Counted from the stretch's first letter, positions 1-28,087 are shown. The stretch is DNA of 32,000 bases from Mesoplasma florum L1 (GCF_000008305.1 NC_006055.1:540001-572000), one strand, 5' to 3'. Notes: generated by a model from the sequence alone, not told the origin. Numbers and translations are program-made.

Positions 1-1943
1 AATAAATCAGTTGAAATACCAAAAGTTAAAGCTGAATTATTTCTTGTAGACATTGATAAACCACTCATTAACATTGTTCCATTGTTACCTGTATATGATG
101 AATCTGCAATTGTTGCGCTTCTTACACCTCTATAATTTGATTGAGATGAATTTCTGTTTACATCTGAATAAGTTAAGTTTAAATAAGTTAAACCTTCGAT
201 TTTTGAAATTAAGTTTTGTTCTTTAATTTGTTGAGCTTCAACTCCTGTGTTTAAACTTAATGCATTTGCAAAATTAGTTCCATTAATTGTTCCATTCATT
301 GCGCCTGTTTCTTTTCAGTAATCTCAAATATTAAAATCTGTTCCATCTTCTTTTTTGACACCTGTTTTACCTGACATTTTAAATTTATTTTGTTTTTGTT
401 GCAATGAGGCATTTGGTGATGATCAAATATCACTTTCAGAAATACCATAGAACTTGTGGAATGTATTTAACATTTGTTCAATTCCTTTATAGTATGCACT
501 AAATATTTTTGATGTTTGGGGGCTATTTACTTCAGAAGCTGATGTTGCTTTATTGTCAATAGCGATTGAATATGTGAAACCAACATCACTTAATCTTTGA
601 GTATATCCATTTCGTAAAGAAATAGTTAAACCTTTATTTGTAATTGTTTCACTTGAAATTGACATTGCTAATAAATCAGGAGTTCTTTCATTTTCTTGAA
701 TCACTGATGTTTGAACTCTTCTGTCATATTCACTTTTTAATTTATTATTATAATTTTGTAAAACTTGTTGTCATTGATTTTCAAGAGATTTATATAATAC
801 TTGATCTCCATTAACTCTTGAACCGTCTAATTGAATTTGATCTGTTGTCTTAACTTTTCCAAAGAAAGTATTTCATTCAGGTCATGCGCCTTGATCAAAC
901 TCAACACTAATTTTTCCTGTGTTGCTGAAATGATTTGTTTGCTCTTGTCTAATAATATCATTTTCATTATAGTAACTTACATTTATTGCGTTAACAACAG
1001 CAGAGCTAGTATTTCTAAAGTATTTGTTTTCAATAGTTGAAGTCATAGATTTTGCAAAGCTTTGATTGTACTTATTAATTGCTGATTTATAAGTTGTTGT
1101 ATTAGCAGTTAATACATCTTGAATTGTTAAGCTTGGCTCTAGAGCTTTTAATGTTTCAAAATCAATGTAAACTTTTGAATTTGCTTCTTTTAACATGTCT
1201 CCTGCTAATTCATTACTAATTTTGTTAATTGCAGCAATAATTTCACCATTATCAGAAACAGTAATAACAACTGTTCCTCTTACAGTATTTGTCACAGTAG
1301 CTTGTTCAGCATCTCTGTATCTATAAGTTGATGAGAAGTTTAGGTTCATACCTGATATAAATCCTTCACCATCAGCTCCTGTATTACCATAAGTCATTTC
1401 TGCATTTTCATAGTCGAATTTAATATCATCAATTCATCTTGAACCAAAGCTTCCAATTAAAACGCTATATGTTGAAGTACTAATAGCATTTCTTAAATCT
1501 ACCATTGCTTTAGCAGGACTTAATAGTGATTCAACATTTGAAGTTAAATCTTTTTGTTGATCAGGTGTTAAAACATCATAAAACTTAACTGATTGTTCAT
1601 TTGCATATGTTGAAGTTTCAGGCCCTGTTTCTCCACCACCTGTTCCAGCTGATGCTTGATCATAAATTGATTTTAAATTATCTTTTTGGAAGAAAATTAA
1701 ACCATTATTTGAGGCTTCTGTATCTAATAGAGTTGATCTTGTTGCCATTGGAGATGAAACAATTGTTGAAAATTTAGTTTGAACTTCAGATTCAAATTGT
1801 CTTATTAATTGTCTTATTGCTTCTTTTTCTTTTTCTGCTGGATCAACTGGTGGCTCAACTGGATCTTTTGAACATGAAATCACAGCCATTGATGAAGTAC
1901 CAACTACAGCGAATGATGATAATATTAATAATAATTTTTTCAT
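1..1943 (-). CDS. Surface lipoprotein, partial; the C-terminus lies beyond the left window edge and at least 647 aa are visible
   Basis: ATG at 1943-1941. The N-terminus [24 protein letters not shown] has a lipobox (VISC) followed by SKD. Track ORFs 1434..1943, 882..1397 and 423..704 share one frame and are separated only by TGA codons (1434, 882, 423 and others). I checked every codon down to base 3 and found no TAA or TAG. The protein is paralogous to the lipoprotein at 3846..5717. Confidence 0.8.
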
Positions 1944-1995
1944 TTTTATTTTTTTCCTTTTCTTTCTTAATTGTGTGTATTTTTAAAATTTTATT

Positions 1996-3810
1996 TTAAA
2001 AATCAAACTTTCTAAATTTATATAAAGCTATTGAAAAACTAAATGTGCTTATTCCAAATAAAATAACCAAATAATATCAAGGCTTAATATAGTTTGATGT
2101 GGTATTTTTTTCAATCATATTAGTAGAAGTAAGTTTTATATCATACTCTGGATATCCTAAAAATAAATTCTTTTGATCTTCTAAATAAATCTTTGAAAAA
2201 GAATTTGGAGAAAATCAAATATCATTATTGTAAAATCCTAAGTTTTTGGTATAAACCATTCACAACCCACTATACAAGTTGAAATAGGATAGGCCACGCA
2301 TCATGCTTCTGCCTTTAGTATAACTATTTCAGTCTCCTGAAGTTTTAGATACCGCATTTGAAGACATAATTATGTAATTGCTTGAATATTTAATAAAGTA
2401 TTCTTCAATGACTCTAGCTGAGTACATTAAATTAAAGTTTAATTGATTTCTAACTAAATCATTTGCATTTGTAAATCTGAATCCATCATTACGGATTCCC
2501 GCAACTGAATATTCATAGAACGAAACAACATCTTGTTTTTTCAAAGCATAAGTTACTTTATTTTCTTCTATTTCTTCTTCAGATGGATTAAGTTTTTCTA
2601 AATAGCTTTTCTCAATACCTGAATCTAAAAATAAGAAATCATAAAATAAATCATATTTTTCAAATTGAAGATCATTGTTGAAGTATTTGTTAATTTCATT
2701 TGTGAAATTTCTAAATTCAACTAAAATATTTTTTGTATTTTGATCAACTGTTTTATTAATTAGTTCATCTAATTGATCGTTTGTTATAAAAGTGTCTTTT
2801 AAAGTTATTTGAATATTAAATTTATCATAGATTGCTCAAGTATTTGGAACAGATGTATCTCTAAGGGGTTTTGAGAATAAATCTAAATTTGTTTCTGTTA
2901 TAACAACTGGATTAGGATTTATAAGTCCTAAATCTTTTCACATTTGCGTTCTATAATTTATATTTGTTGTGTTACGAAATTGATCAGTGACCATTTCTTT
3001 TGAAAGAAAATAGTTGTAAACGTATTTGGATAAATGGGGATATTTAATATTTCCATCGTTTACATGATCATATAAGCTGTATGCATCATATATATCATTT
3101 AACTGAAAAATGTCACCGCTTGTAAATTGTACATAATAACTTTTTTCATTTGCTTTTATAAACGACATGGGGATGTTTGCTATAAATGATAATGCTAATA
3201 ATAATGTACATATAATTGTAGTTGTTTGTAACGTAAATATAAAAATTAAAAACGAAATAAAGTTAATTAAAAAGAATGTTGCAAGTAAACAATATATAAC
3301 ATACATTGATGTCATTCTAAGTATAAATACATCATAATGAAACAATGTAAATACTGCATAGAATATATTAATAACAATAAAGCTCATTAAAATATTTACA
3401 GCACAAATTAAAATAATTAATAAATATTGAGCTATAAAAAACTTTGTTCTACTTACTTGATTAGTTAAAACAATATATGTTGTTTTATCTTCAAAATTCT
3501 TACTGAAGAAAAATTGAATCATTCTTAAAATAAATACAAACATTAAACAACAAACAAAAAATAATATATAAAAGTTGAATATTACAACTTGAGAACTTCC
3601 AGATTTTACAAAAGCTAATATAATTCCCATTAAAATAGAAATAATAATAGTTGCTAAATTTAAAATATAAAATAATTTTTCTTTTAATAAACTTTTAAAA
3701 CTAAATTTCATTAATTTAACAAACGGGATTCTTCTATATTTAATAAGCTTTTGCTTTATAAAATTTTGCAAAGGGTTTGTTTTCTTTTTTTCATAATTTT
3801 CTTCTACCAT
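1996..3810 (-). CDS. Integral membrane protein, putative permease of the adjacent ABC ATPase (604 aa): about 5 N-terminal TM helices, a roughly 330-aa extracytoplasmic domain, and one C-terminal TM helix
   Basis: ATG at 3810 lies 7 nt after a strong SD (AAGGAGGTGAAGGTACT ATG). The track's MKGGEGT extension starts at a TTG inside that SD. Track ORFs 2938..3831 and 2329..2544 share a frame and are joined by TGA codons. I checked codon by codon down to the TAA at 1996-1998. The hydrophobic stretches LFYILNLATIIISILMGIILAFV, VVIFNFYILFFVCCLMFVFIL, FFIAQYLLIILICAVNILMSFIVINIF, VIYCLLATFFLINFISFLIFIF, IICTLLLALSFIANIPMSF and the terminal WYYLVILFGISTFSFSIALY are visible. Confidence 0.7.
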
Positions 3811-3845
3811 AGTACCTTCACCTCCTTTCAATGTAATTCACTAAA

Positions 3846-5717
3846 TTAAATAGATTCAATTAGTGTTCTTTCAAATCAATAAAATTTTTCTGATTTAATT
3901 ACAAAGCTTAGGTTTAAAAATGATAGATTAAAATCGACTGAAAGATTACTTGAACCTTCTTTAAATTTTTTAAAAATAAGTTGATTATTATTCATTTCAA
4001 TTATTGGAATATTCTGCAATTCTTCACTATTGTTAAATTGAAAATGAAATGATGATGAGTTAGTTTTATTTAAAAAACTTTGGCGATCTGATTCTGCTGA
4101 ATAAGTTGAACTTTTATTATTAAGTAAACTTAGTTGAGCATTAACATCTGAGATACTTTTATCATTAGTAGTTGCAGCTCTTGATTGTAAAATATTTGAA
4201 CTTTTTAAACTAATTAATTGCTGATTGTCTGACAAAGACTTTCATGTTGTTTTAGATGTTCCATAACTTTCTTGAAAAATTTGTAAAGCACTCATTGTAT
4301 TTTGGTAAATTGCTTTAAAAATTGGATCTTGATCAGGTAAAACTATTTTATTTTTAACCATTTCACTTTCACCATTTAAATAACTGTCATTAAAGTTATT
4401 GGCTGATATTCCAACATAATATGAAATCGGGCTAATTGGGTGATAATAATTAAATTCATCAAAATATAGACAAAAGTTATTTAAAGTAACCTCTCCAAAA
4501 TTAACTAGTGAATCAGAATTAATATTAAGTTCTTCATTAACGTTAGATTGAAAATTGCTTACTCATGTTTTATATTCTTTGCTTAAATAAGCATAGATAT
4601 CTTGATTTCCTTTTACGAATTTATTTTCTAGAACAATTTGATCGTCTGTTATTAATTGACTAAAAATTATTTTGAATAAATTTATATTATTTGTATTTGT
4701 TGTAGAAACTGTATCATCAAGAATTAATTCATTAGACCCGTATTTATTTTGGCGCGGATCGAAATTACTAATTTTATCAATAGATTTAAAATGTTTAAAT
4801 CTATTTTCGTCTTTAAAAGCAAAATTATAACTTTGTGTTGGCTTACTTAAATTAGTATTATGTTCATAAATATAACTTAATAAACTTTTTTCAAATTTAT
4901 CAAATTTAAAGAGATTTTCAAAATCACTATTTGATAAATTAAATAATCTTGCATAATCATTTACTCTAAGATCATATGCATCAAACCATGCTCATTCAAA
5001 TTTATTTTTAATAAGATTTTCTCTTAGCTCACTTGTTGTAAACTTTAAGTTTTCAATTATGTCATTTTGATTAGAAATTGTAATTACTATATCTTCGTGG
5101 TAATTATTTTTAATTATATTTTTATTAATGTCAGTGTATTGGTAAGTAAAAACTAAACCTAAATTAACATTAGCTATATAATTTTTATTTTCTTTATCAA
5201 AATTTAAATAACCAAAATCTATGTTATTAAAATCATAAGACAATCCATCAAATCATTTTTGATCTACATTTTTAAAATCCAAAATACTTGAATAAAAATT
5301 AATTTCAGGTTTCATTGAATCTAAAATTGTTTCTTCTAATTTACTGTTTTTTGTAATCTTATTTAAATCATTATTTAAGGCGTCTTTTTCTCTTTGAGAT
5401 AAAAGTTCATAATTTGAAGATACATTTTGGTTTTGTTTACGCAAACTTATTTCTTGTAAATTAGACTGAGTGAAAAAATCTAGATTTTTATTTTGTTGCA
5501 TAGTTTGATCAATATAAATAATTTCATTTTGTTTTTTAGCTAATGCATTATGAAATTTTGTTTCAACTTCTTGTTCAAAAGATTCGCCAAGAACATAATA
5601 GTCATATATTGGTTTATATTCTTGTTTAAAATCTTTTGGTTTTTGGCCACAAGCAGTAGTTATTAAACCAAAACCTAGAACAAATACTGAGGCAATTGGT
5701 AATACTTTTTTTAACAT
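3846..5717 (-). CDS. Surface lipoprotein (623 aa), paralogous to the lipoprotein at 1..1943
   Basis: ATG at 5717. The signal peptide MLKKVLPIASVFVLGFGLITTAC carries a lipobox (TTAC) followed by GQ. Track ORFs 5253..5717, 4992..5243 and 3876..4235 share a frame. I read every intervening codon and found only TGA interruptions. The stop is the TAA at 3846-3848. Confidence 0.8.
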
Positions 5718-5732
5718 CTTATTTGGGGAAAT

Positions 5733-8600
5733 TTATTTGTTAAATTTTTGCATTAGCAATACTTCGTTTAATTTATTTTTCTCTTCTTGGATTTCACGTC
5801 TAATTCTTTCAAGTTCTAAAACATTTTCACGTTGTTTCATTTCACTATCAAATTTAGCTAACTTTTGATTCATTTCTTTTTCAAATGCCATTTCTTTTCT
5901 TAACTGTTCAAAATATTCTTTTTCTTTAATCAAATCAGATTTAATTTTTTCTAATTCTTGATCTTTTAGTGAAATTGCATTTTGTTGATGTCACATTGGT
6001 TGTTGCATATTATCTGAAAAATTATTTAAACCTTGATGTGAATTTACATATCTTTTCATATTTTGTTGTTCATTCATTTCATATTTTAATTTTTCTAATT
6101 CTTCTTTCAATTTTAAGATTTCAAAATTTGATTCTTTAATAGTTGTTGATTCTTCGTTAATTAAGTTAACTTTTGTAGCTATGTTGTTTTGAATTGTATT
6201 GATTTCACTATATTGGCTCTCTAATTGTTTTTGTTTTGATTGAGTTGAAATATTTTCAGCTTCAATTTTGGCTAGTATTGCACTTTGAGTTTCTTTCAAT
6301 TTTTTTAATTCTTCTTCAAGTTCAGCTTTTGATTGATTAACTTCACTTGATTCAATTTGAATCTGTGACATAAATTCTTTTAATTCAGAAATACTATTTT
6401 TAATTGATTCTTTTTCAGCAGATGCTGTTTTATTAAATTCATCATGATATTCCTTGAATTCTTTAATTTTTTCTAAGTATTCAGCTTTTGATTCTTGAAT
6501 AATTTGTGTTTCTGCACTAATGTTTTCAACATATGATTTTAAATCTATAAGTTTGCTTGTAAACTCAGCTTTAATTGAATCAATTTCTTCATATTCTGTA
6601 ATTGTTGCTACAGCAATATCTTCTTGTAATTTTTTCAATTCATCAAGTTTTATATTTAACTCAAGTTTCTTCATTTCAACTTCTTCTTGCTCTAAATCAA
6701 CTTCAGTCAAGAATTCTTCTCTGCTTTGTTTTAAAGCAGATAAATCTTTATCTAACGCATCTCTTGAATTATTAATTTCATCATTTTCAATTTGAATTTG
6801 AGTTAAATAACTCTTAAAGTCTTTAATTTCTTCTTGAATGATTTCTCTTTGAACAGCAACTAAGTCTTTGAATTGATTTTCAAATTCTTTAAATTCATTC
6901 ATTTTTAATTCAATTTCAGAAGTTAAAGAATTTTCAGATTCAATCTTAACTTTTTCAATATAAGTTTTTAAATCTTCAAGTTTATTCGAAAATTCAGTTT
7001 TTACTAGATTAATTTGTTCATACTCATTTGCTGAAGTTGAACTGATCTCATCTTGCAATGCCTTTAGTTCATCAATTTTAATTTGTAAATCTGTTTTCTT
7101 AAATTCTAATTCTTCTGTTTCAGCTTCAGTTTGTTGTAAAAGCGCTTTTAAATTAGTTGCTTCATCTTCAAATGAAGTTTTTACTTGATGAATGATTTCT
7201 GATTCTAATTTAATTTTTGCAAAGTAGTCTTTTAAATCATCAATGTTTAAATCAATTTCATTTTTTTGTTCTGTTACAATTTTGTTTATTTCTAATTTTA
7301 AATTTTTAAGTTCTTGCACTTTATCGAAAAAGTCATTTTTGATCATATTTATTTCTGATGCTGTTAAAACATGTTCACTTGCATAACTTGGATCATTTAA
7401 AACTAATGCTTCATGTGATTCGGTTGATGATTCAGGTGAGTTTTCACTTATTAATACAAGATCGCTTGATAAATCCACTTTAATTTCATCTTCTTTTAAA
7501 TTTAAAATGTTTTTATATTTATCTTCTATTTTGTTTAAGAAGTCTAATGCTCTGTCTAAATCAATCGATTTATTTGAACTATCAATTGCAAATTCTTTTA
7601 GTGCTTCATATTTTGGTTTATGTGGTTTTTCTTTATCTTCTAATGCTTTTGTAATTGCATCCATATTAATAGCTTGTGCTACAACATCTTTTGGTTGTAT
7701 ATGATTTTTTTCTAAAATAGCTAAAGCATCATTAAAAGTTTGGTATTGATTTAAACCAATAACTAATGAATTAGTACTTAAGTCAAAATTAAACGTCAAA
7801 ATATTATGTTGATTTAAAAGTTTTTCAACTTCTGCTAATACAACATCTTTTTCAAATGAAACATTTATTTTTTTATATAAATTCAATTCAGATTTTGATC
7901 CAGAAAATAATAATTTACCTTTTTCTAAAATTACAAAGTTTTCAATTATGTTATAAACTTCATCAATATTATGAACTGTTAATATAATTGTGCTATTGAA
8001 TTCTTCTTTAAATTCTTTTAGTATTTTGTAAGATTGCCCTCTTCATTTAGAGTCTAAGTTTGCACCTGGTTCATCTAAAATAAGAATTTCAGGTTCTTTA
8101 ATAAAGCATAAAATTAAATTCATACGGTTTTTCATTCCTCATGAAAATGCATTTAAAGGTTTATCTTTAGATGTTCATAAGTCAAATTTTTTTAATCAAT
8201 ATTCAATTCTTGATTTTACTAATGTTTTATCTAAACCCATAACATTACACATATTGTATAAAAAGTCATAAGCTGTAATTGAATATAATGAAAAATCCAT
8301 TTGAGAATAAAACCCTACATTAGAGTTATTTTCAATTGAACTGCTTTTTTTACGTTCTTTACCATTAATATAGATATTTCCATCATAATTTAGAGTAGCT
8401 CCAAGTAATGAGTTTAAAAATACACTCTTACCTGATCCACTACTTCCAAGTAATGCTGTAACTTTTCCTTTTTCAATATTAAAAGAAAATGGTCCTATAT
8501 TTATGTCTTTAAATTTTTTATGAAAATGGTCAACCATAACAGCATTATTATTAGAGTTTTCTAAAATAACACGCTTTGATTTCAAAATATTTTTTTCCAT
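5733..8600 (-). CDS. ABC transporter ATP-binding protein fused to a C-terminal extension of about 720 aa, most of it coiled coil (955 aa in total)
   Basis: ATG at 8600 follows the SD AGGAGAAAACGAA. The ATPase motifs are Walker A GSSGSGKS, signature-like FSWGMKNR (its W is a TGA), Walker B ILILDEPGANLD and H-loop TVHN. Track ORFs 8196..8600, 5991..7886 and 5733..5933 are all in one frame. I checked 7887-8195 and 5934-5990 codon by codon and found only TGA at 8196, 8175, 8139, 8043 and 5991. The stop is the TAA at 5733-5735. Downstream of the NBD the sequence is E/K/L/I/Q-rich and heptad-like. Confidence 0.85.
6252..7109 (-). repeat. Two tandem in-frame coding repeats of about 143 aa (429 nt) within the coiled-coil extension
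   Basis: Unit 1 reads LEFKKTDLQIKIDELKALQDEISSTSANEYEQINLVKTEFSNKLEDLKTYIEKVKIESE ... KDFKSYLTQIQIENDEINNSRDALDKDLSALKQSREEF. Unit 2 reads VEMKKLELNIKLDELKKLQEDIAVATITEYEEIDSIKAEFTSKLIDLKSYVENISAETQ ... SELKEFMSQIQIESSEVNQSKAELEEELKKLKETQSAI. The register is the same with an offset of 143 residues. The copies are diverged and are not recent. Confidence 0.7.
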
Positions 8601-8652
8601 TTCGTTTTCTCCTACATCATTTTAATAATTTGTTTGATTTGATTTGAGTTTC

Positions 8653-8681
8653 ATTTTTTCAAACCATGAGTTAATTGTCAC
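8653..8681 (-). promoter_or_regulatory. Candidate sigma-70-type promoter for the ABC/lipoprotein cassette
   Basis: The minus strand reads GTGACA (8681-8676), a 17-nt spacer, then AAAAAT (8658-8653), about 50 nt upstream of the ATG at 8600. The -10 match is weak (4/6) in a very AT-rich context. Confidence 0.3.
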
Positions 8682-8697
8682 AAAAAAAAAAAAAAAA
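8682..8697. repeat. Homopolymer: A16 on the plus strand, T16 on the minus strand
   Basis: The sequence reads directly as c a(16) c. It is the longest homopolymer I noticed in the window. It is intergenic and lies immediately 5' of the candidate -35 of the ABC cassette. Confidence 0.95.
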
Positions 8698-8759
8698 CAA
8701 GTCTTTCATGAATTTTGTTAAAAAACACTTAAATGTTAATCAGCCAGTAAGATCAAAAA

Positions 8760-8791
8760 AGCAAAAAAAAGAAAGCATTTATGCTTTCTTT
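8760..8791 (-). terminator. Rho-independent terminator downstream of hpt
   Basis: An 11-bp perfect stem (aaagaaagcat at 8768-8778 pairing with atgctttcttt at 8781-8791) has a 2-nt loop. On the minus strand it is followed by a T-run (the plus-strand A-run ending at 8770). Confidence 0.65.
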
Positions 8792-8822
8792 AATATTATT
8801 TATATATAGTTTAATAAATATT

Positions 8823-9392
8823 TTATCATTTTCAATCAGCTAATTTATCAGTATCACAAACAGCTACATAAGGTAAGTTTCTTAATTTTTCTTGATAATC
8901 TAAACCATAGCCTATTACAAAGTGTTTTGCAATTGAAAAACAAGTTCAATCTGGTTTAATATCTACTTTGCGTTCAGTTGGTTTATCTAACATAGTTAAA
9001 ATTTTAACTGATTTTGCACCTTTGTTTAATAAGTAATTTTGTACAAACTCTAGTGTTAGACCAGATTCAACAATGTCTTCAACTATTAATATATTGCGAT
9101 CTTTAACAGACATGTTAACGTCTAAATTAATTTTGGGTTCTCCAGAACTTTTTGTTCCACCCAAATATGAACTTACAACCATAAAATCCATATCAATTAA
9201 AAAGTCAAAATTCATACAGAATGTTTGATAAAAAGGAATACATCCTTTTAATAATCCTATAACCAATAATGATTGGTCTTCTTTATCATTTTGTTCGTAA
9301 AATGATTTAATTTCTTTTGCTACTTCAATTGTTCTTTCTTTTATTTGTTCTTCAGTAAATAATACATTTTTTACTAATGGGTGTAATTTCAT
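8823..9392 (-). CDS. hpt: Hypoxanthine(-guanine) phosphoribosyltransferase (189 aa)
   Basis: The PRPP-binding motif is ILIVEDIVESGLTL. The N-terminus (HPLVKNVLFTEEQIKERTIEVAKEI) and the C-terminus (FVIGYGLDYQEKLRNLPYVAV) are typical of Hpt. The gene continues through the TGA at 8946 to the TAA at 8823. The SD is AAAGGAGCACA. Confidence 0.9.
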
Positions 9393-9420
9393 TGTGCTCC
9401 TTTGTTTAAATTTTGTAATA

Positions 9421-9463
9421 TAAAAATAATACCTATTATTGATTTCTTAATCAATAGGTATTA
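9421..9463 (-). terminator. Hairpin with T-run between ruvX and hpt; a terminator or attenuator
   Basis: An 11-bp stem pairs taatacctatt (9427-9437) with aataggtatta (9453-9463). On the minus strand it is followed by TTTTTAT. Confidence 0.5.
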
Positions 9464-9467
9464 ACAA

Positions 9468-9896
9468 TTATTTCTTAATTTTTTCTAAATATGTTTCTAA
9501 AATTAATTGTGCAGCTAGTGTATCTTTGTTTTCTTTTTGTTTTTGACGAGATAACCCAGCTTCGATCATAATTGACTTAGCCATTTTAGTAGTTCTTCTT
9601 TCATCTATTCTAATTATTTGTTCTTCTTTAATTTCTGGATTATAAACCATAAATCCTTCAATAAAATAATCAACCATTTCAGCTCTTTCACCAATTGATC
9701 CATTCATGTTTTTAGGATAACCAAAAACAAATGTATCAAAAGATTTATCTTTTATGAATTCAGTTAATAAACTAACTCCTTCTTCAAAGTTTCATTCTTC
9801 AAATTTTAAGTTGATTTCTTTCTTTGCTACGTTACCTGTTGAAGAAGCTAAACCTATTGTTTTGCTCCCAACATCAAGACCTAGAATATTACTCAT
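9468..9896 (-). CDS. ruvX: Holliday-junction resolvase-like protein YqgF/RuvX (142 aa)
   Basis: The N-terminus MSNILGLDVGSKTIGLASS is the YqgF signature. The sequence continues ...FGYPKNMNGSIGERAEMV... and DERRTTKMA. The SD GGAGGAG lies upstream. There is one internal TGA. The stop is the TAA at 9468. Confidence 0.85.
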
Positions 9897-22654: not shown

Positions 22655-22744
22655 TGGCGGGTTAAAAGAGACTCGAACTCTTGCGCCGGAAACCGACCTA
22701 ACACCTTAGCAGGGTGTCCTCTTCACCAACTTGAGTATTAACCC
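22655..22744 (-). tRNA. tRNA-Ser (anticodon GCU), 90 nt including an encoded CCA
   Basis: I folded the cloverleaf by hand. The acceptor stem is GGGTTAA/TTAACCC. The D arm is CTC...GAG with a GG loop. The anticodon stem ACACC/GGTGT carries the loop CT-GCT-AA. A long variable arm is present (GTCGG-TTT-CCGGC). The T arm is AAGAG-TTCGAGT-CTCTT. The discriminator is G and the 3' end is CCA. Confidence 0.93.
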
Positions 22745-22794: not shown

Positions 22795-23262
22795 TTATTT
22801 ATGATATTTTTCATTATTCATTATTTTAAATGCACGATATATTTGTTCAGCTAAAATAATTCTAAATAATTGATGTGGTAACGTGATGTTACCAAAAGAA
22901 ACTTTTTTATAATTTTGTTGTAAAAATTTATCACTAAAACCATCACTTGGCCCTATTACAAAAACAATTTTTGCTTGCTTTAAATTTTTATTATTTTCAA
23001 TGATTGACATAAATTCTTCTGTTGAATAATTTTTAGAACTTACATCCATACAAATTATTTCATGATCTGAAAATGCTTTTAATTTATCTATTAATAAATC
23101 TGAATTAATATTTTTATTTACCACATCTTCTTTTTGGTATTCTTCTTTAAGTTCAATAACTTGTAAATTAGCATATTTTGATATTCTATTTGCGTATTCA
23201 TTAAATGAATCAATAAAGAATTTCTTATCTAATTTACCAAAACAAACTATTTTGATATTCAT
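22795..23262 (-). CDS. rlmH: 23S rRNA (pseudouridine1915-N3)-methyltransferase RlmH (155 aa)
   Basis: The length and SPOUT-family pattern fit RlmH: MNIKIVCFGKL...FIDSFNEYANRISKY...VIGPSDGFS...LSFGNITLPHQLFRIILAEQIYRAF. Confidence 0.88.
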   Translation of the reverse strand: MNIKIVCFGKLDKKFFIDSFNEYANRISKYANLQVIELKEEYQKEDVVNKNINSDLLIDKLKAFSDHEIICMDVSSKNYSTEEFMSIIENNKNLKQAKIVFVIGPSDGFSDKFLQQNYKKVSFGNITLPHQLFRIILAEQIYRAFKIMNNEKYHK

Positions 23263-24719: not shown

Positions 24720-26084
24720 TTAATACAATAATGTTTTAGGTGTTCTTGGGAATGGAATAACATCTCTAATGTTTGAAGCACCTGTAATGTACATAATTAA
24801 TCTTTCAAACCCTAAACCAAATCCAGCAGATTTGTAAAATCCATATTTTCTTAATCCAATGTATCAGTCTAATTCTTCAGGATTAATTCCATAGAATTCA
24901 CATCTCTCAAGAATCTTATCTAAGTTAGCTTCACGTTCACTTCCACCACATAATTCACCAATTCCTGGAACTAGTAAGTCTACAGCGGCAACTGTTTTAC
25001 CATCATCATTTTGTTTCATGTAAAATGATTTAATATCTTTTGGATAGTTGATAACAAATGTTGGACATTTGTTAACTTCTTCACAAATAAATCTTTCGTG
25101 TTCTGTACCTAAATCTAAACCAAAATGAATATTGTTTTCTTCAAATTTATGCCCTTTATCAATAGCATCTTGTAATGTTTTTAAAACTTCTTCATAAGTA
25201 TTAACTTTAAATTCAACATTAACAATTCCTGTTATTTTATCAATTAAACCAGGTTCTAATTGTTCTTGTAAAAATTCTAATTCAGTCATGTTTTTTTCTA
25301 AAACATAACCAACAACACTTTTTAACATATCTTGCATTAATTGAATGTTGTCATTAATATCTGCAAAAGCAACTTCTGGTTCTATCATTCAGAATTCTGA
25401 AGCATGTTTTGTTGTATGTGAGTTTTCAGCTCTGAATGTTGGTCCAAAAGTATAGATATTTTTAAATGCTTGAGCAAATGCTTCACCATTTAATTGTCCT
25501 GAAACTGTTAAACTAGCTTTTTTACCAAAAAAGTCATTTGCATAATCTTTATCTTCATTAACTGTAACTACGAATTGTTCACCAGCACCTTCAGCATCAT
25601 TTGAAGTTATGATTGGTGTTGTAACATAAACATAGTTATTTTCTTGAAAGAATTTATGAATTGCAAAAGCAGCTGTTGAGCGAATTCTAAAAATTGCTTG
25701 GAATGTTTTTGTTCTAGCTCTTAAGTGCGAAATTTCTCTTAAAAATTCAGGAGAATGTTCTTTTTTTTGTAATGGATATTCTTCAATTGCTTGATCAAGT
25801 AAAGTAATTGAAGTCGCATTAATTTCAAAAGGTTGTGGTCTTGTTGGTGTAGGAATTAAAATACCTTCGATTTCAACAATTGAACTAACTCTTGCTTTAC
25901 TTCCTTGTTCAAAACCAAATGTTTCTGGTTTATAAACAACTTGTAAGTCATTTAAAACAGTTCCATCATTTAAAACCATAAAGCTAACTGCTTTTCCTTG
26001 ACGATTTGATCTAACTCTACCAATGATTGTTACTTTTTGTTCTTTTAAAGTTTCATGGTTGTCATATAAAAATTTAATATCCAT
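24720..26084 (-). CDS. asnS: Asparaginyl-tRNA synthetase (454 aa)
   Basis: The N-terminal OB fold is [24 protein letters not shown]. Class IIb motifs are [21 protein letters not shown] (the W is the TGA at 25389-25391) and GSEREA. The C-terminus is [27 protein letters not shown]. Track ORFs 25389..26084 and 24864..25388 are contiguous. Confidence 0.96.
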
Positions 26085-26088
26085 ATCT

Positions 26089-26937
26089 TTATTCTCCTTT
26101 TAATACATATTTTTCTATAAATTTACCAACTCCACCATTAAGGTTTGTATCAGTTTCAAATTTTGCTATTTTTTTAATTGCTGGTACTGAGTTTCCCATA
26201 GCAACTGAATTTGGAACAACTTCAAACATGCTTATGTCATTCATATTGTCACCAAAGATTAATATTTCATCAAGTTTAATATTTAGTAATTCTGCTAATT
26301 TTAATACACCATTACCTTTACTTGCCTCAATGTTAATAAACTCATAAATTGGTGTTGATTCAACATTACTTCTCATTTTGTTTAACACTTTATTTTTATC
26401 AGTTTTTTCAAATCATTCTAACATTGCAGCTTCTTCTTTTTCCTCAACAAAAATCATAAACTGAATAACGTCTTGATAATTATTAAATGTTGATACATCA
26501 ATTGGTTCAACATCATATTTATCAACTCAATTTCTTTCTTTTAATGACTTAACATTAATATCAATTTTATTTCAATATGCATGCGCAGGGACTTTTGTAT
26601 ATGCTAATGTTGGAATATTCATTTCAAACATTTTTTGCATAAATTCTTTAACTAATTCAATATCGATTGTTTCACAATATGTTGGTTCAAATTTTGATAC
26701 TGTTGAAATAACAGATCCGTTTGAAAAAATAGAAACATCAGAATGTTTATCTACATCAAACATTTTTGCTCTTACTGAACCACTTGATCAACCTTGACCA
26801 GTAACAACAGCTACATGAACACCTTGCTCTGATACTTTTTTTAACATTTCTAAATCAAATGGATTTGATATTTTTCCATGTTCTAAAATCGTTCCATCTA
26901 AATCTGTTGCAATCAATTTAATATTAGTTAACTTCAT
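26089..26937 (-). CDS. Cof-type HAD-IIB phosphatase (282 aa)
   Basis: HAD motif I is IATDLDGTIL. The C-terminal motifs are FGDNMNDISMF and the ...GN... region. Track ORFs 26572..26763 and 26089..26388 share a frame. I checked the gap codon by codon and found only TGA codons. Confidence 0.85.
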
Positions 26938-26941
26938 TTAT

Positions 26942-28087
26942 TTATTTTCCTTTTTTTCTATTTTTTGTTGAATTTACATAGAAAGTATTAACTTCATATT
27001 TCTCTAAGAAATTATTGTCAATAATTTCAGAGTTAATACCTAGATTTTTCAAAGCTCTCTCAGTTGCTTCGTCATCTTTCATTATTTTATTTTCAAAAGT
27101 TAATCATCGATAAACTGTTTGATAATAATGATGTTTAAGAGATAAACAATGTGATGAATAGTCATAAATTAAAATTTCATCATCTCTTGAATGAATTGAT
27201 CTTTTAACAAATAATCTCATTGAATCATCAAATGGTGTTACATTATCATTTCTACAATGTAAGAAAAACATTGGGAATATCATTTTTAAATCTGATTCAT
27301 AGTATTTAAACACGTCTAAATCATTTCAATCTAAATCAGTATCTTGAATTTGGTTTTTAATAATTCTATTAATAGATTTACCAACTCTTTTGTGACTTAC
27401 TAAGTTTTTTAATCAAACATTTCTTGTATGCACTAATAATGTTTTAATGCTTCCATAATATGAGTCTGAAATTGCTCATTTAATATTATATTTAGAAAAT
27501 TCTTCGTTATATTTTACAATACCATATTGCATTGTAAATCCACCCATACTCATTCCAACTAAGCCAATTGTTTCTGGTTTGTGGTTTTCATGTAATCATT
27601 TCATTGCTGCTCTAAAGTCTTTAACTTCACTAGCACCCATAGTTACATATTCAGTACTTTCAGATTCACCATGATTTCTAAAATCAAAAACTAAAATGTT
27701 ATATCCTAGTTCAATGAATGGTCTTGCTTCATATAAAGCTCAATATTTATGTCCAGCAAATCAGTGTAATGATACAACTCATTTTTTAGAATTAGGATCA
27801 GTTATATATTTCATTCCTGAAATAACTACTCCATCTTCTGTTTCGAAATTAAAAGGGATTAAATTATCAGTTGCTTTTAATTGTAGTTGTGGTGTTTTAT
27901 AAAACTTACGCATGATTTTATTCATACGTCTTAATTCAGGATAATAGTATTTATTCTTATTAGAATCTCCCATTGTTCCTTCTAAAGCTTTATAAAAAAA
28001 TTTAAATCTAAGGTTAACAGTTTTAAAAATTTTGCTACCTAATCTAGATCTAGATTTTTTATTATTTTTTTTCTTTACTTTGGACAT
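26942..28087 (-). CDS. Alpha/beta hydrolase with an intact triad and a basic N-terminal extension (381 aa)
   Basis: The nucleophile elbow is GLVGMSMGG. Candidate Asp and His residues fall in CRNDNVTP and SSHCLS. The N-terminus is MSKVKKKNNKKSRSR. The SD is AAGGAG. Track ORFs 27779..28087 and 27104..27313 share a frame. I read all intervening codons and found only TGA codons. Confidence 0.8.

Follow-up and report, generated by a model that had tools for sequence, protein, structure and literature searches.

The ATPases of ABC transporters count among the most closely studied motors, and several of them carry additional modules on the C-terminal side of the nucleotide-binding domain (NBD). The regulatory domains of MalK, MetN and ModC and the carbohydrate-binding domain of Wzt dimerise beneath the NBD pair and modulate its activity or bind ligands or partners, and all of them are compact, globular modules of 100-150 aa. 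In NosDFY, ATP drives conformational work on the NosD and NosL partners. A different use of a coiled coil is found in WbdD, from the ABC-transporter-dependent O9a antigen pathway, which contains a 'molecular ruler' whose evolvable length spaces the membrane anchor from the functional end. In the human transporter ABCD1 (ALDP), a C-terminal coiled coil placed after the NBD dimerises and is reported to hold the NBDs apart and to lower ATPase activity (PMC9944889).

Here we describe Mfl462, a transporter-type ABC ATPase of Mesoplasma florum L1 in which an intact NBD is followed by a tail of ~630 aa. M. florum is near-minimal and is being built up as a model organism in systems and synthetic biology. 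Our literature search, which included the locus tag and the 'Na+ ABC transporter' of syn3, found no work characterising Mfl462, its family or coiled-coil ABC ATPases of Mollicutes. A first-pass annotation of this DNA had not recognised the architecture from characterised ABC transporters, but the C-terminal coiled coil of ABCD1 is a small characterised precedent.

The window that we analysed, 32,000 nucleotides long, corresponds to positions 540,001-572,000 of the M. florum L1 genome, and coordinates below are those of the window. Under translation table 11 the frame of Mfl462 falls into pieces, and all five internal 'stops' are TGA (aa 135, 142, 154, 186 and 870). Under table 4, where TGA encodes Trp, it is a single 955-aa frame running from 8600 to 5733 on the minus strand. 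Four of the five TGA codons (aa 135, 142, 154 and 186) stand at a Trp that is invariant in an alignment of 12 orthologues, and a continuous frame of this type is kept in more than 10 strains and species. Published proteomics credits Mfl462 with 955 aa, 111 kDa and 9 validated unique peptides, which agrees with the single product of about 110 kDa and the unbroken frame joining NBD and tail that had been read at first pass. The entry 'GUAPRT [Mfl462]' in a draft-model supplement was disregarded; it looks like an off-by-one slip for the neighbouring hpt. The protein consists, in this order, of a transporter-type NBD, an ABC-2 C-terminal domain, an acidic disordered linker, a heptad rod of ~440 aa, a Q/N-rich break and an 80-aa terminal helix:

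5733..8600, minus strand: Mfl462 (peg.469, YP_053704.1), 955-aa reading frame under table 4, stop codon TAA at 5733-5735
7896..8600, minus strand: nucleotide-binding domain, aa 1-235 (Pfam, NCBIfam, alignment, structure matches)
8424-8447, minus strand: Walker A GSSGSGKS, aa 52-59, invariant in 12 orthologues
8301-8303, minus strand: Q100 of the Q-loop, invariant in 12 orthologues
8124-8147, minus strand: signature FSWGMKNR (alignment with ABCA3)
8070-8087, minus strand: Walker B ILILDE with the catalytic Glu, aa 172-177, invariant in 12 orthologues
7971-7973, minus strand: H210 of the H-loop, invariant in 12 orthologues
7608..7895, minus strand: C-terminal domain of ABC-2/DrrA/NosF-type ATPases plus a conserved helix, aa 236-331 (TIGR01188, AF2, Spiroplasma alignment, Foldseek)
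7362..7607, minus strand: acidic, mostly disordered linker, aa 332-413, net charge -12 (alignment, composition, AF2)
6042..7361, minus strand: heptad-repeat α-helical rod, aa 414-853, net charge -40, ~65 nm if continuous (heptad and helix analysis)
6645..7073, minus strand: tandem repeat copy 1, aa ~510-652 (local alignment)
6216..6644, minus strand: second copy of the tandem repeat, aa ~653-795, with 38% identity to the first (local alignment)
5976..6041, minus strand: Q/N-rich non-helical break, aa 854-875, dN/dS 0.90 over 22 codons, near-neutral (AF2, dN/dS)
5736..5975, minus strand: conserved C-terminal helical module, the tip, aa 876-955 (alignments, profile search, dN/dS)

The Pfam family PF00005 (ABC_tran) matches Mfl462 over aa 38-178 (E = 4.5e-24, 86.1 bits, above the cut-off of 25), and all ATPase motifs are contiguous within one domain, aa 52-210. 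This bears out the complete NBD seen earlier in the first ~235 aa, with one qualification in the signature. In FSWGMKNR, a Trp replaces the first Gly of LSGGQ/LSGGM, Trp154 being aligned with the first Gly of the ABCA3 SGGM. This residue, encoded by TGA, is invariant across the Mfl462 family, Spiroplasma included, while unrelated matches keep SGGQ or SGGM, and it raises the possibility that the ATPase is slow or atypical. The segment that follows, noted at first pass as ~80 aa of mixed alpha/beta character, is real and proves to be an ordinary DrrA/NosF-type C-terminal domain: in the AF2 model aa 243-309 adopt a beta-alpha-beta-beta-alpha-beta fold, the TIGR01188 match runs to aa 305, and Spiroplasma orthologues also have it. 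TIGR01188 (drrA) is the best NCBIfam match (aa 37-305), with 117.6 bits, below its cut-off of 312.45; Mfl462 is, judged by such profile matches, of the same broad class as DrrA and outside any curated equivalog. The solved NBDs nearest in sequence are those of ABCA3/1/4/7 and TM_1403, and a Foldseek search with the NBD and C-terminal domain matched PmtCD, NosF, TM_1403 and MetN over ~317 columns.

Mfl462 is the first gene of an operon-like module that also encodes a permease (Mfl460) and two lipoproteins (Mfl461 and Mfl459). The elements of the module and its upstream region are the following:

3846..5717, minus strand: Mfl461, 623-aa lipoprotein, partner in the module
1996..3810, minus strand: Mfl460, 604-aa permease with an interfacial helix, 5 TM helices, a ~350-aa external domain and a sixth TM helix; NosY/PmtCD-like TM fold
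1..1943, minus strand: Mfl459, lipoprotein paralogous to Mfl461; it runs past the end of the window and has a full length of 673 aa
8653..8681, minus strand: promoter region, with the transcription start site (TSS) at genome position 548,666/7 (window ~8666) and the -10 element GACAAT at 8673-8679 (Matteau 2020 supplement)
8768..8791, minus strand: hairpin resembling a terminator, placed between hpt (Mfl463) and the promoter of Mfl462; the sole one in window positions 1-9500

The one mapped TSS lies upstream of Mfl462, and terminators are absent between the genes of the module. Homologous permease and lipoprotein genes adjoin the ATPase in M. mycoides, a Logan contig, M. seiffertii and two Spiroplasma species, with shuffled gene order, and the genomic linkage of ATPase and permease extends to six loci. 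Mfl460 has six TM helices plus the N-terminal interfacial helix; its sequence had no match in Pfam, NCBIfam or PDB profile searches, and its fold agrees best with those of NosY and the PmtCD permease, at probability 1.0 and a target TM-score of 0.50-0.55 but with E ~0.2. For the external domain between TM5 and TM6 (~350 aa), no solved counterpart was found. Mfl459 and Mfl461 contain no Pfam or NCBIfam domain beyond the lipoprotein signal, belong to no known family in these collections and have no PDB-profile match. Together these results show that Mfl462 is the ATPase subunit of an ABC-2 (type V, NosFY/PmtCD-like) module with Mfl460, Mfl461 and Mfl459, and its ATP hydrolysis is predicted to be coupled to the Mfl460 permease.

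The tail begins with the linker, which holds one short conserved helix at aa 348-365 (...LNKIEDKYKNIL...). From there on the heptad pattern is pervasive: it exceeds the 95th percentile of the shuffled tail over 96% of aa 414-955 and 0% of aa 1-331, Fourier analysis also detects it, and Pro and Gly are absent from aa 405-856. Heptad statistics and the order of the motifs thus agree with the earlier description of a very long coiled-coil-like tail placed after, not inside, an intact NBD. The two diverged 143-aa tandem repeats described there are likewise real. The copies share 54 identical residues among 142 aligned, with a local score of 291 against 62 +/- 9 for shuffled sequences (z = 24.6) and offsets of 143-145 aa, and the offset scan and local alignment find a partial, weaker third copy upstream. 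At the DNA level, Tandem Repeats Finder (TRF) reported no long-period repeat at Mfl462, which indicates that the duplication within the rod is old; blastp of the protein against itself returned the trivial diagonal only, with no repeat signal.

The charges flanking the heptad core are distributed unevenly: position e carries 25 basic and 9 acidic residues and position g 30 acidic and 11 basic (p = 7e-5), a pattern that recurs in diverged orthologues and, with acidic g and basic e, favours a parallel pair. The full-length AF2 model is a monomer of low confidence (pLDDT 58, pTM 0.31) from which we took secondary structure alone, so that pairing and orientation rest on sequence statistics alone. 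In this model the rod helix is interrupted at aa 522-526 and 665-669, once per repeat; these breaks could be hairpin turns, giving a folded bundle and not an extended rod. The model also places a non-helical stretch at aa 854-867 and a final helix at aa 868-954, in keeping with the Q/N-rich break and final coiled coil of ~90 aa reported earlier.

The far end of the tail is its best conserved part. Identity between the tip of Mesoplasma and that of the M. mycoides cluster or P0011 is 41-52%, and 18 alignment columns are invariant; the tip can be aligned across genera while the rod that separates it from the NBD cannot. It is neutral in charge, against a net -40 in the rod. A profile of the tip searched against 1.84 billion representatives gave 6 matches, all from the Mfl462 family or fragments of it, and a search with the tail only (aa 332-955) returned nothing beyond Mfl462 orthologues. 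Estimates of dN/dS are 0.037 for the NBD, 0.107 for the rod, 0.055 for the tip and 0.90 for the Q/N break; by this measure the tail is under purifying selection.

We surveyed related genomes by protein searches and look-up of the encoding contigs. The module was detected solely in Apis-clade Spiroplasma, in Mesoplasma/Williamsoniiplasma and in the M. mycoides cluster. A contig scan with the Trp-containing peptide FSWGMKNR, limited by the use of TGA for Trp in these genomes, found only M. grammopterae, M. seiffertii and three unrelated ABC genes. Spiroplasma orthologues, of 309-312 aa, belong to the same module, are 48-50% identical, have SWGM as their signature and stop at the residue equivalent to aa ~325, without any tail, which makes the tail a lineage-specific addition. 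This shows that the ancestral ATPase had ~310 aa, NBD plus C-terminal domain, and that the tail was added after residue ~325 in the Mesoplasma/mycoides branch. The survey of related Mollicutes suggested at first pass thus yields fusions of NBD and tail, and within the clade the tail measures between 0 and ~690 aa: the lengths found are 0, ~85, ~200, ~270 and 570-690 aa, with block indels and, in the mycoides cluster, poly-Asn runs. The rod grew by internal duplication of 143-aa units, and its length and sequence change freely while the tip is conserved. M. seiffertii and W. luminosum either lost rod and tip or did not acquire them in the first place, and in several lineages of the mycoides cluster the gene as a whole is broken into fragments. 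A 739-aa variant of M. florum, considered as a case of varying repeat number, was rejected as such and is a frameshift truncation of rod and tip in one strain. These losses, the frameshift and the fragmentation indicate that the tail is easily dispensed with. The idea that tail gain tracks MreB loss was dropped, as Mfl003 of M. florum is annotated as MreB.

Published data put Mfl462 at ~29 copies per cell, in cells of ~550 nm (540-570 nm); it is non-essential in rich medium and absent from JCVI-syn3.0. Since the same module runs with a tail-less ATPase in Spiroplasma, the core job of the protein is that of a transporter and the tail is accessory. One ABC transporter has two NBDs side by side, which would bring two Mfl462 tails together, and with acidic g and basic e positions these would most probably pair in parallel as a two-stranded coiled coil. 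Flexible linkers would tie such a coil to the NBD pair, from which it would reach some 65-80 nm into the cell. It may keep the two ATPase subunits permanently paired, tune their ATP cycle in the manner of the short coiled coil at the C-terminus of ABCD1, or both, and it may present the conserved tip for self-association or to a putative cytoplasmic partner. The most plausible role for the tail, at low certainty, is an accessory one, in which it tethers or regulates the NBD pair. Direct steric control of NBD closure is less obvious, given the folded domain and the 82-aa disordered linker between NBD and coil. Taken as a whole, we think that Mfl462 is probably a transporter-module ATPase to which a selected coiled-coil tail was added, with an accessory role in pairing or tuning and in tip presentation.

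Other explanations deserve consideration. The tail could be a largely non-adaptive expansion, an E/K/N/I/L-rich helix yielded by an AT-rich genome and tolerated as a duplicating appendage that is constrained only to stay soluble and helical. Its range of lengths, from 0 to ~690 aa, the block indels and poly-Asn runs, its repeated loss and the non-essentiality of the gene are what such drift would produce, and other M. florum ABC ATPases are also abnormally long, with low-complexity-type domain matches (Mfl019, 604 aa; Mfl024, 785 aa). We nevertheless hold it unlikely, given dN/dS values of 0.11 in the rod and 0.055 in the tip against 0.90 in the Q/N break of the same gene, a tip that stays 41-52% identical across genera although the intervening rod is unalignable, an e/g charge asymmetry kept in diverged orthologues and a heptad phase held over ~540 residues. 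Purifying selection on the tail would also suit the suggestion of the first-pass annotation, a cytoskeletal, positioning or mechanotransmission device whose rod joins ATP hydrolysis at the membrane to a putative cytoplasmic scaffold, transport being secondary or absent. The rod is indeed long (~65 nm), the conserved and family-exclusive tip resembles a docking module, and the nearest structural relatives of the permease include NosDFY, whose solved structures 7o0y and 7znq pair NosY with the extracytoplasmic NosD and the lipoprotein NosL. Against this, a structural scaffold in a cell of 540-570 nm would take far more than ~29 molecules, the protein is non-essential and missing from JCVI-syn3.0, tail-less orthologues serve the same module in Spiroplasma, M. 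seiffertii and W. luminosum have lost the tail, and one M. florum strain has a truncated one. We therefore consider a bulk cytoskeletal role unlikely, and the permease and lipoprotein module, the tail-less orthologues, the copy number and the non-essentiality argue against the replacement of solute transport by such a role; we regard the device as a whole as distinctly unlikely. It is quite improbable, too, that the tail acts as a cytoplasmic tether in which a parallel coil of ~65-80 nm docks a lipoprotein-associated ABC machine to an intracellular partner or to the tips of other transporters. If true, this would be a transmembrane coupling or clustering device of a kind undescribed for ABC transporters, in which the evolvable length of the rod sets the reach.

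An ABC-type head with a long coiled coil recalls the chromosome-associated ATPases SMC, Rad50 and MukB, and published annotation tables do give the CDD label 'CcmA; SMC_N superfamily' for Mfl462. In those proteins, however, the coil interrupts the ATPase fold and runs back antiparallel via a hinge or hook; in Mfl462 it is C-terminal and its charge pattern favours a parallel arrangement. The motifs are contiguous (aa 52-210) and the coil begins further on, at aa ~414, leaving the NBD unsplit. Hinge and zinc-hook are absent, and no SMC family (e.g. SMC_N, SMC_hinge) appeared in the Pfam scan at E <= 0.1. Moreover, the NBD is nearest to the transporter NBDs of ABCA, NosF and PmtCD, the gene sits within a permease/lipoprotein module, and the rod is strongly acidic (net -40) with a neutral tip. 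A relationship of this sort is hardly credible, and the initial view that a coil appended to an unsplit transporter-type NBD is not the SMC/Rad50 design holds. As to an artefact, an error in the sequence or the misreading of two neighbouring genes as a single frame would account for the broken look under table 11, but we give practically no weight to it: the breaks are TGA without exception, mostly at invariant Trp, the frame recurs among strains and species, and the full 955-aa, 111-kDa protein is listed by proteomics.

Under the reading that we favour, a transporter-module ATPase with an accessory coiled-coil tail, four genes of a minimal-genome model that had counted as 'unknown' (Mfl459-462) can be named and placed in context; the analysis also draws attention to the invariant Trp of the ABC signature. 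The graded tail lengths on orthologous ATPases in otherwise equivalent modules provide a natural comparison series, and since Mfl462 is non-essential, deleting the tail or swapping the tip seems practicable. Binding of a partner by the tip would amount to a new wiring between a membrane transporter and the interior of the cell; a tail that does no more than tune NBD pairing would make the ABCD1 mechanism a more general one.

Among known systems, Mfl462 and its partners resemble the ABC-2/type V transporters (NosFY of NosDFYL, PmtCD, TM_1403, DrrAB, ABCA-type NBDs) in NBD sequence, in the fold of the C-terminal domain and in the TM bundle of the permease; they differ in the ~630-aa tail, the SWGM signature and the ~350-aa external domain of Mfl460. 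The likeness to NosDFYL is one of organisation only: extracytoplasmic/lipoprotein partners are co-encoded, but Mfl459 and Mfl461 have no NosD- or NosL-type match in Pfam or NCBIfam. ABCD1 shares with Mfl462 a helix appended after an intact transporter NBD. Its element, of ~40 residues, abuts the NBD of a fused type IV half-transporter, whereas that of Mfl462 comprises ~540 helical residues on a stand-alone type V ATPase, ends in a distinct terminal module and has no sequence relationship to it. Nor does the helix run directly from the NBD as in ABCD1, since a folded domain (aa 236-331) and the 82-aa linker intervene. WbdD, like Mfl462, combines conserved ends with a variable spacer, but it is a separate enzyme and not a transporter ATPase, and Mfl462 gives no sign of length measuring. 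Unlike the globular modules of MalK, MetN, ModC and Wzt, the tail of Mfl462 is an extended coiled coil with a distal module, even though MetN is among its fold matches. The known C-terminal additions of ABC ATPases are thus compact regulatory domains or the 40-residue coil of ABCD1, and a selected tail of ~600 residues with a distal module widens this repertoire.

Under translation table 4, positions 8600..5733 (-) of the window, which is AT-rich (GC ~0.20-0.34), form a single ORF of 955 aa ending in TAA, and the nucleotide-binding domain (NBD) and its downstream extension do share one frame, as the first-pass annotation had read them. All five internal stops of this frame are TGA, and four of the five (residues 135, 142, 154 and 186) fall in columns where all 12 aligned orthologues have Trp. 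A table-11 ORF listing cuts the frame into what could pass for pieces of a broken gene, but every break is a TGA and table 4 joins them. A protein search returned a 955-aa Mesoplasma florum entry with a reported identity of 100%, and a cluster look-up and published tables name the gene Mfl462 (peg.469, YP_053704.1, AAT75820.1; L1 genome 545,732-548,600 (-)), which sets the window at 540,001-572,000 of the L1 genome. Two table-4 ORFs antisense to the rod of its tail, 6181-6810 (+) (209 aa) and 7507-7956 (+) (149 aa), are rich in S, F, L and I, a composition that mirrors the E/K-rich codons of the sense strand, and can almost certainly be dismissed as genes. The sole RNA gene detected in the 32 kb is tRNA-Ser(GCT) at 22655-22744 (-), in a stretch of ~860 nt between proS (end 21,931) and the ORF 22,795-23,262.

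Pfam ABC_tran matches Mfl462 residues 38-178 (E = 4.5e-24). The protein has Walker A (52-59), Q100, Walker B (172-177) and H210, each of them invariant across the 12 orthologues. The signature is unusual:

8124-8147 (-), signature FSWGMKNR of Mfl462; W154 codon (TGA) at 8139-8141

In the alignment to ABCA3, Trp154 stands opposite the first Gly of SGGM. This Trp is invariant in the Mfl462 family, Spiroplasma included, and from Spiroplasma to Mycoplasma it is confined to that family, while unrelated ABC matches retain SGGQ or SGGM. Since a homodimer would carry the Trp in both ATP sites, the ATPase may be kinetically atypical. The segment behind the NBD had been described as mixed alpha/beta. 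The fold stands, as AF2 models residues 243-309 as beta-alpha-beta-beta-alpha-beta and 313-321 as a further helix, but it is nothing peculiar to this protein. The top NCBIfam match, the DrrA subfamily, reaches residue 305 (under its curated cut-off), and Foldseek alignments of ~317 columns were obtained with NosF, MetN, Thermotoga TM_1403 and the PmtCD ATPase; what was described is therefore the C-terminal domain that ABC-2-type ATPases ordinarily carry.

Mfl462 is followed by three further minus-strand genes at spacings of 15, 35 and 52 nt:

Mfl461, downstream (-), lipoprotein of 623 aa
Mfl460, downstream (-), polytopic membrane protein of 604 aa
Mfl459, downstream (-), second lipoprotein, a paralogue of Mfl461 (22% identical)

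We compared gene order between window positions 1-8600, Mycoplasma mycoides, the Logan contig SRR28034346 (L003) and two Spiroplasma loci. In M. mycoides and L003 the ATPase is accompanied by all four gene types, and in M. seiffertii ORFs with lipoprotein-type N-termini and a permease-like ORF, judged by eye and unaligned, lie 3' of the ATPase gene. The order varies (ATPase-lipoprotein-permease-lipoprotein, ATPase-permease-lipoprotein-lipoprotein, ATPase-lipoprotein-lipoprotein-permease, lipoprotein-permease-ATPase) and the content is kept, with permeases 57-64% identical between lineages. The S. cantharicola module is flanked by three near-identical lipoprotein copies of 617-618 aa. L003 (13,870 bp) is Mollicute-like and encodes a 934-aa orthologue, 41% identical to Mfl462 and of the same rod and tip design; the gene directly upstream belongs to Pfam PF28190 (MMSYN1_0478 family).

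A perfect hairpin with a 10-bp stem and T-runs on both strands (8768-8791) separates the Mfl462 promoter from hpt (Mfl463). It looks like a bidirectional terminator, and there is no other terminator-like hairpin in window 1-9500. In published 5'-RACE data Mfl462 has one gene-start TSS (window ~8666), Mfl461 and Mfl460 have none, and the only TSS of Mfl459 is internal. Because of this single gene-start TSS and the sole terminator-like hairpin upstream of Mfl462, the data fit one operon from Mfl462 to Mfl459.

In the AF2 model of Mfl460 (pLDDT 70) an interfacial helix precedes five TM helices, and a confident external domain of ~350 aa separates these from a sixth. The TM bundle has its best fold matches in NosY of NosDFY(L) and in the permease of PmtCD, at a probability of 1.0 and a target TM-score of ~0.5 but with weak E-values, and the published CDD annotation is likewise NosY (PMC5893858). 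Profile and fold searches matched the external domain to nothing known, and profile searches did no better with the lipoproteins. The module is thus predicted to be a transporter of the ABC-2 (type V exporter-fold) class that has lipoproteins as partners, and the names 'multidrug' and 'Na+ ABC transporter' given in databases are unspecific labels derived from homology.

The permease family extends to Spiroplasma floricola, S. culicicola, S. taiwanense and S. cantharicola. Both Spiroplasma loci fetched (S. floricola and S. cantharicola) have the order lipoprotein-permease-ATPase, and their ATPases, of 312 and 309 aa respectively, end near Mfl462 residue ~325. They are 48-50% identical to residues 35-324 and share the SWGM signature. 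These comparisons show the Mfl462 tail as a derived, lineage-specific addition.

Tail length by lineage
Spiroplasma: 0 aa
M. seiffertii: ~85 aa
W. luminosum: ~200 aa
M. mycoides cluster: ~270 aa
L003 organism: ~600 aa
M. florum group: 570-690 aa

Mesoplasma and mycoides-cluster tails are unalignable in their middle, and align over the last ~80 residues at 41-52% identity with 18 invariant columns. A profile of this terminal module retrieved six matches from 1.84 billion representatives, all of them Mfl462-family members or fragments, and a whole-tail search found nothing beyond Mesoplasma and Williamsoniiplasma orthologues. Published tables list other long ABC ATPases in L1, mfl019 (25,861-27,675; 604 aa, 'Neuromodulin_N' CDD match) and mfl024 ('PotA', 34,226-36,583; 785 aa, 'V_ATPase_I' CDD match), and this genome may be prone to adding long C-terminal extensions to its ABC NBDs.

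The tail opens with an acidic linker (332-413, net charge -12), mostly disordered in AF2. Its helix at residues 348-365 (window 7506-7559, ...LDFLNKIEDKYKNILNL...) has a counterpart, differently spaced from the NBD, in the 41%-identical orthologue P0011 (...YLEKIEDKYKDIMNF...), and could be a second short motif with a function. The long heptad-like region proposed beyond it is real: a register scan exceeds the shuffled-tail 95th percentile over 96% of residues 414-955, against 0% of 1-331, with register changes every 25-60 residues, and hydrophobic periodicity peaks at 3.5-3.6 residues. No Pro or Gly occurs from residue 405 to 856. The long AF2 helices span 414-521, 527-556, 560-664, 670-807, 825-853 and 868-954; the rod (414-853) is strongly acidic (net charge -40) and the terminal module neutral. 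The two diverged 143-aa tandem repeats were also recovered, at ~510-652 and ~653-795, with 54 of 142 aligned positions identical, offsets of 143-145 and an alignment score of 291 against 62 +/- 9 in shuffles (z = 24.6). A weaker, partial third copy lies upstream, and helix breaks at 522-526 and 665-669 occupy equivalent positions in both copies. TRF did not detect the repeat in the DNA, and the duplication is therefore old.

Orthologue tails vary through block insertions and deletions: M. chauliocola has an additional half unit of ~67 aa, and M. entomophilum and W. somnilux lack blocks of ~50 aa. A 739-aa M. florum variant (P0119, on a 792,347-bp contig) is no case of repeat-number variation; a frameshift after residue ~727 (window ~6420 onwards) deletes its last ~230 aa, conserved terminal module included. 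It is either a natural truncation or an assembly error, and probably explains the 'non-core' scoring of the gene. With M. grammopterae as reference (dS ~0.33), the regional dN/dS values indicate that the tail is maintained by selection.

dN/dS by region of Mfl462
NBD: 0.037
C-terminal domain: 0.084
Linker: 0.168
Rod: 0.107
Q/N break (22 codons): 0.90
Terminal module: 0.055

Heptad assignment gives a and d positions rich in I/L, with 25 K/R against 9 D/E at e and 30 D/E against 11 K/R at g (Fisher p = 7e-5), a result that is not circular because register assignment disregarded charge sign. The asymmetry recurs in the orthologues P0010 (p = 1e-5) and P0011 (p = 0.02) and in mycoides-cluster tails (p = 0.035-0.097). 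Complementary g-e' charges favour parallel in-register pairing, whereas an antiparallel hairpin opposes like charges; the charge pattern of the rod thus favours parallel pairing. Since each transporter has two ATPase subunits, we infer that their tails probably form a two-stranded coiled coil. The rod would measure ~65 nm if continuous, plus a terminal segment of ~13 nm, hung from flexible linkers; the most probable cell diameter of M. florum is 538-570 nm.

Mfl462 (111.1 kDa) is expressed, with moderate RNA levels, nine validated unique peptides (8.4% coverage of the 955 aa) and about 29 copies per cell, against ~119 for Mfl459; Mfl460 and Mfl461 went undetected in proteomics (Matteau et al. 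2020, PMC7745072). From Dataset EV6 of that study only numeric columns were used, as in the text version of the spreadsheet the columns for 'amino acid sequence' and 'conserved domains' mismatch their rows (the DnaA row holds a PTS-HPr sequence). Transposon mutagenesis scored Mfl459-462 as non-essential, with a miss probability of 3.9e-5 for Mfl462, and JCVI-syn3.0 lacks all four genes (Baby et al. 2018, PMC5893858). In Lachance et al. 2021 they have no assignment, and none has a reciprocal homologue in M. gallisepticum, M. pneumoniae, M. genitalium or syn3. Several mycoides-cluster lineages have the gene annotated as fragments only, and our literature search found no mention of Mfl462 in the running text of papers.

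We show, then, that Mfl462 supplies the ATPase to an ABC-2 transporter module confined to one clade, and that its tail is a derived, selected and expressed but dispensable appendage of linker, rod and conserved tip. The first-pass annotation is confirmed in its observation and partly supported in its interpretation. It had set the protein apart from SMC/Rad50-type ATPases, rightly, as the coiled coil is appended after the head and both a hinge and an SMC profile match are absent. The cytoskeletal role that it offered for the rod is unlikely, at least in bulk, because there are ~15 transporters per cell, the gene is non-essential and tail or gene has been lost repeatedly. A purely non-adaptive expansion is disfavoured by the dN/dS values of the tail and by the conservation of both the tip and the e/g asymmetry, but it keeps some probability, the more so as Mfl019 and Mfl024 are likewise unusually long ABC ATPases.

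The most economical reading is that the tail is accessory. It could act as a spacer presenting the conserved tip for self-association or to a partner, or, by analogy with ABCD1, it could keep the NBD pair permanently clamped or tune it. The mechanism is inferential and the protein rare and dispensable, which limits its interest; on the other hand, the architecture is unusual, its tail lengths form a natural series, and M. florum is near-minimal and amenable to genetics. Mfl462 is annotated in databases and uncharacterised. ABCD1 has a short C-terminal coiled coil reported to clamp or tune its NBD pair, whereas Mfl462 is a transporter ATPase whose C-terminal coiled-coil tail is exceptionally long.
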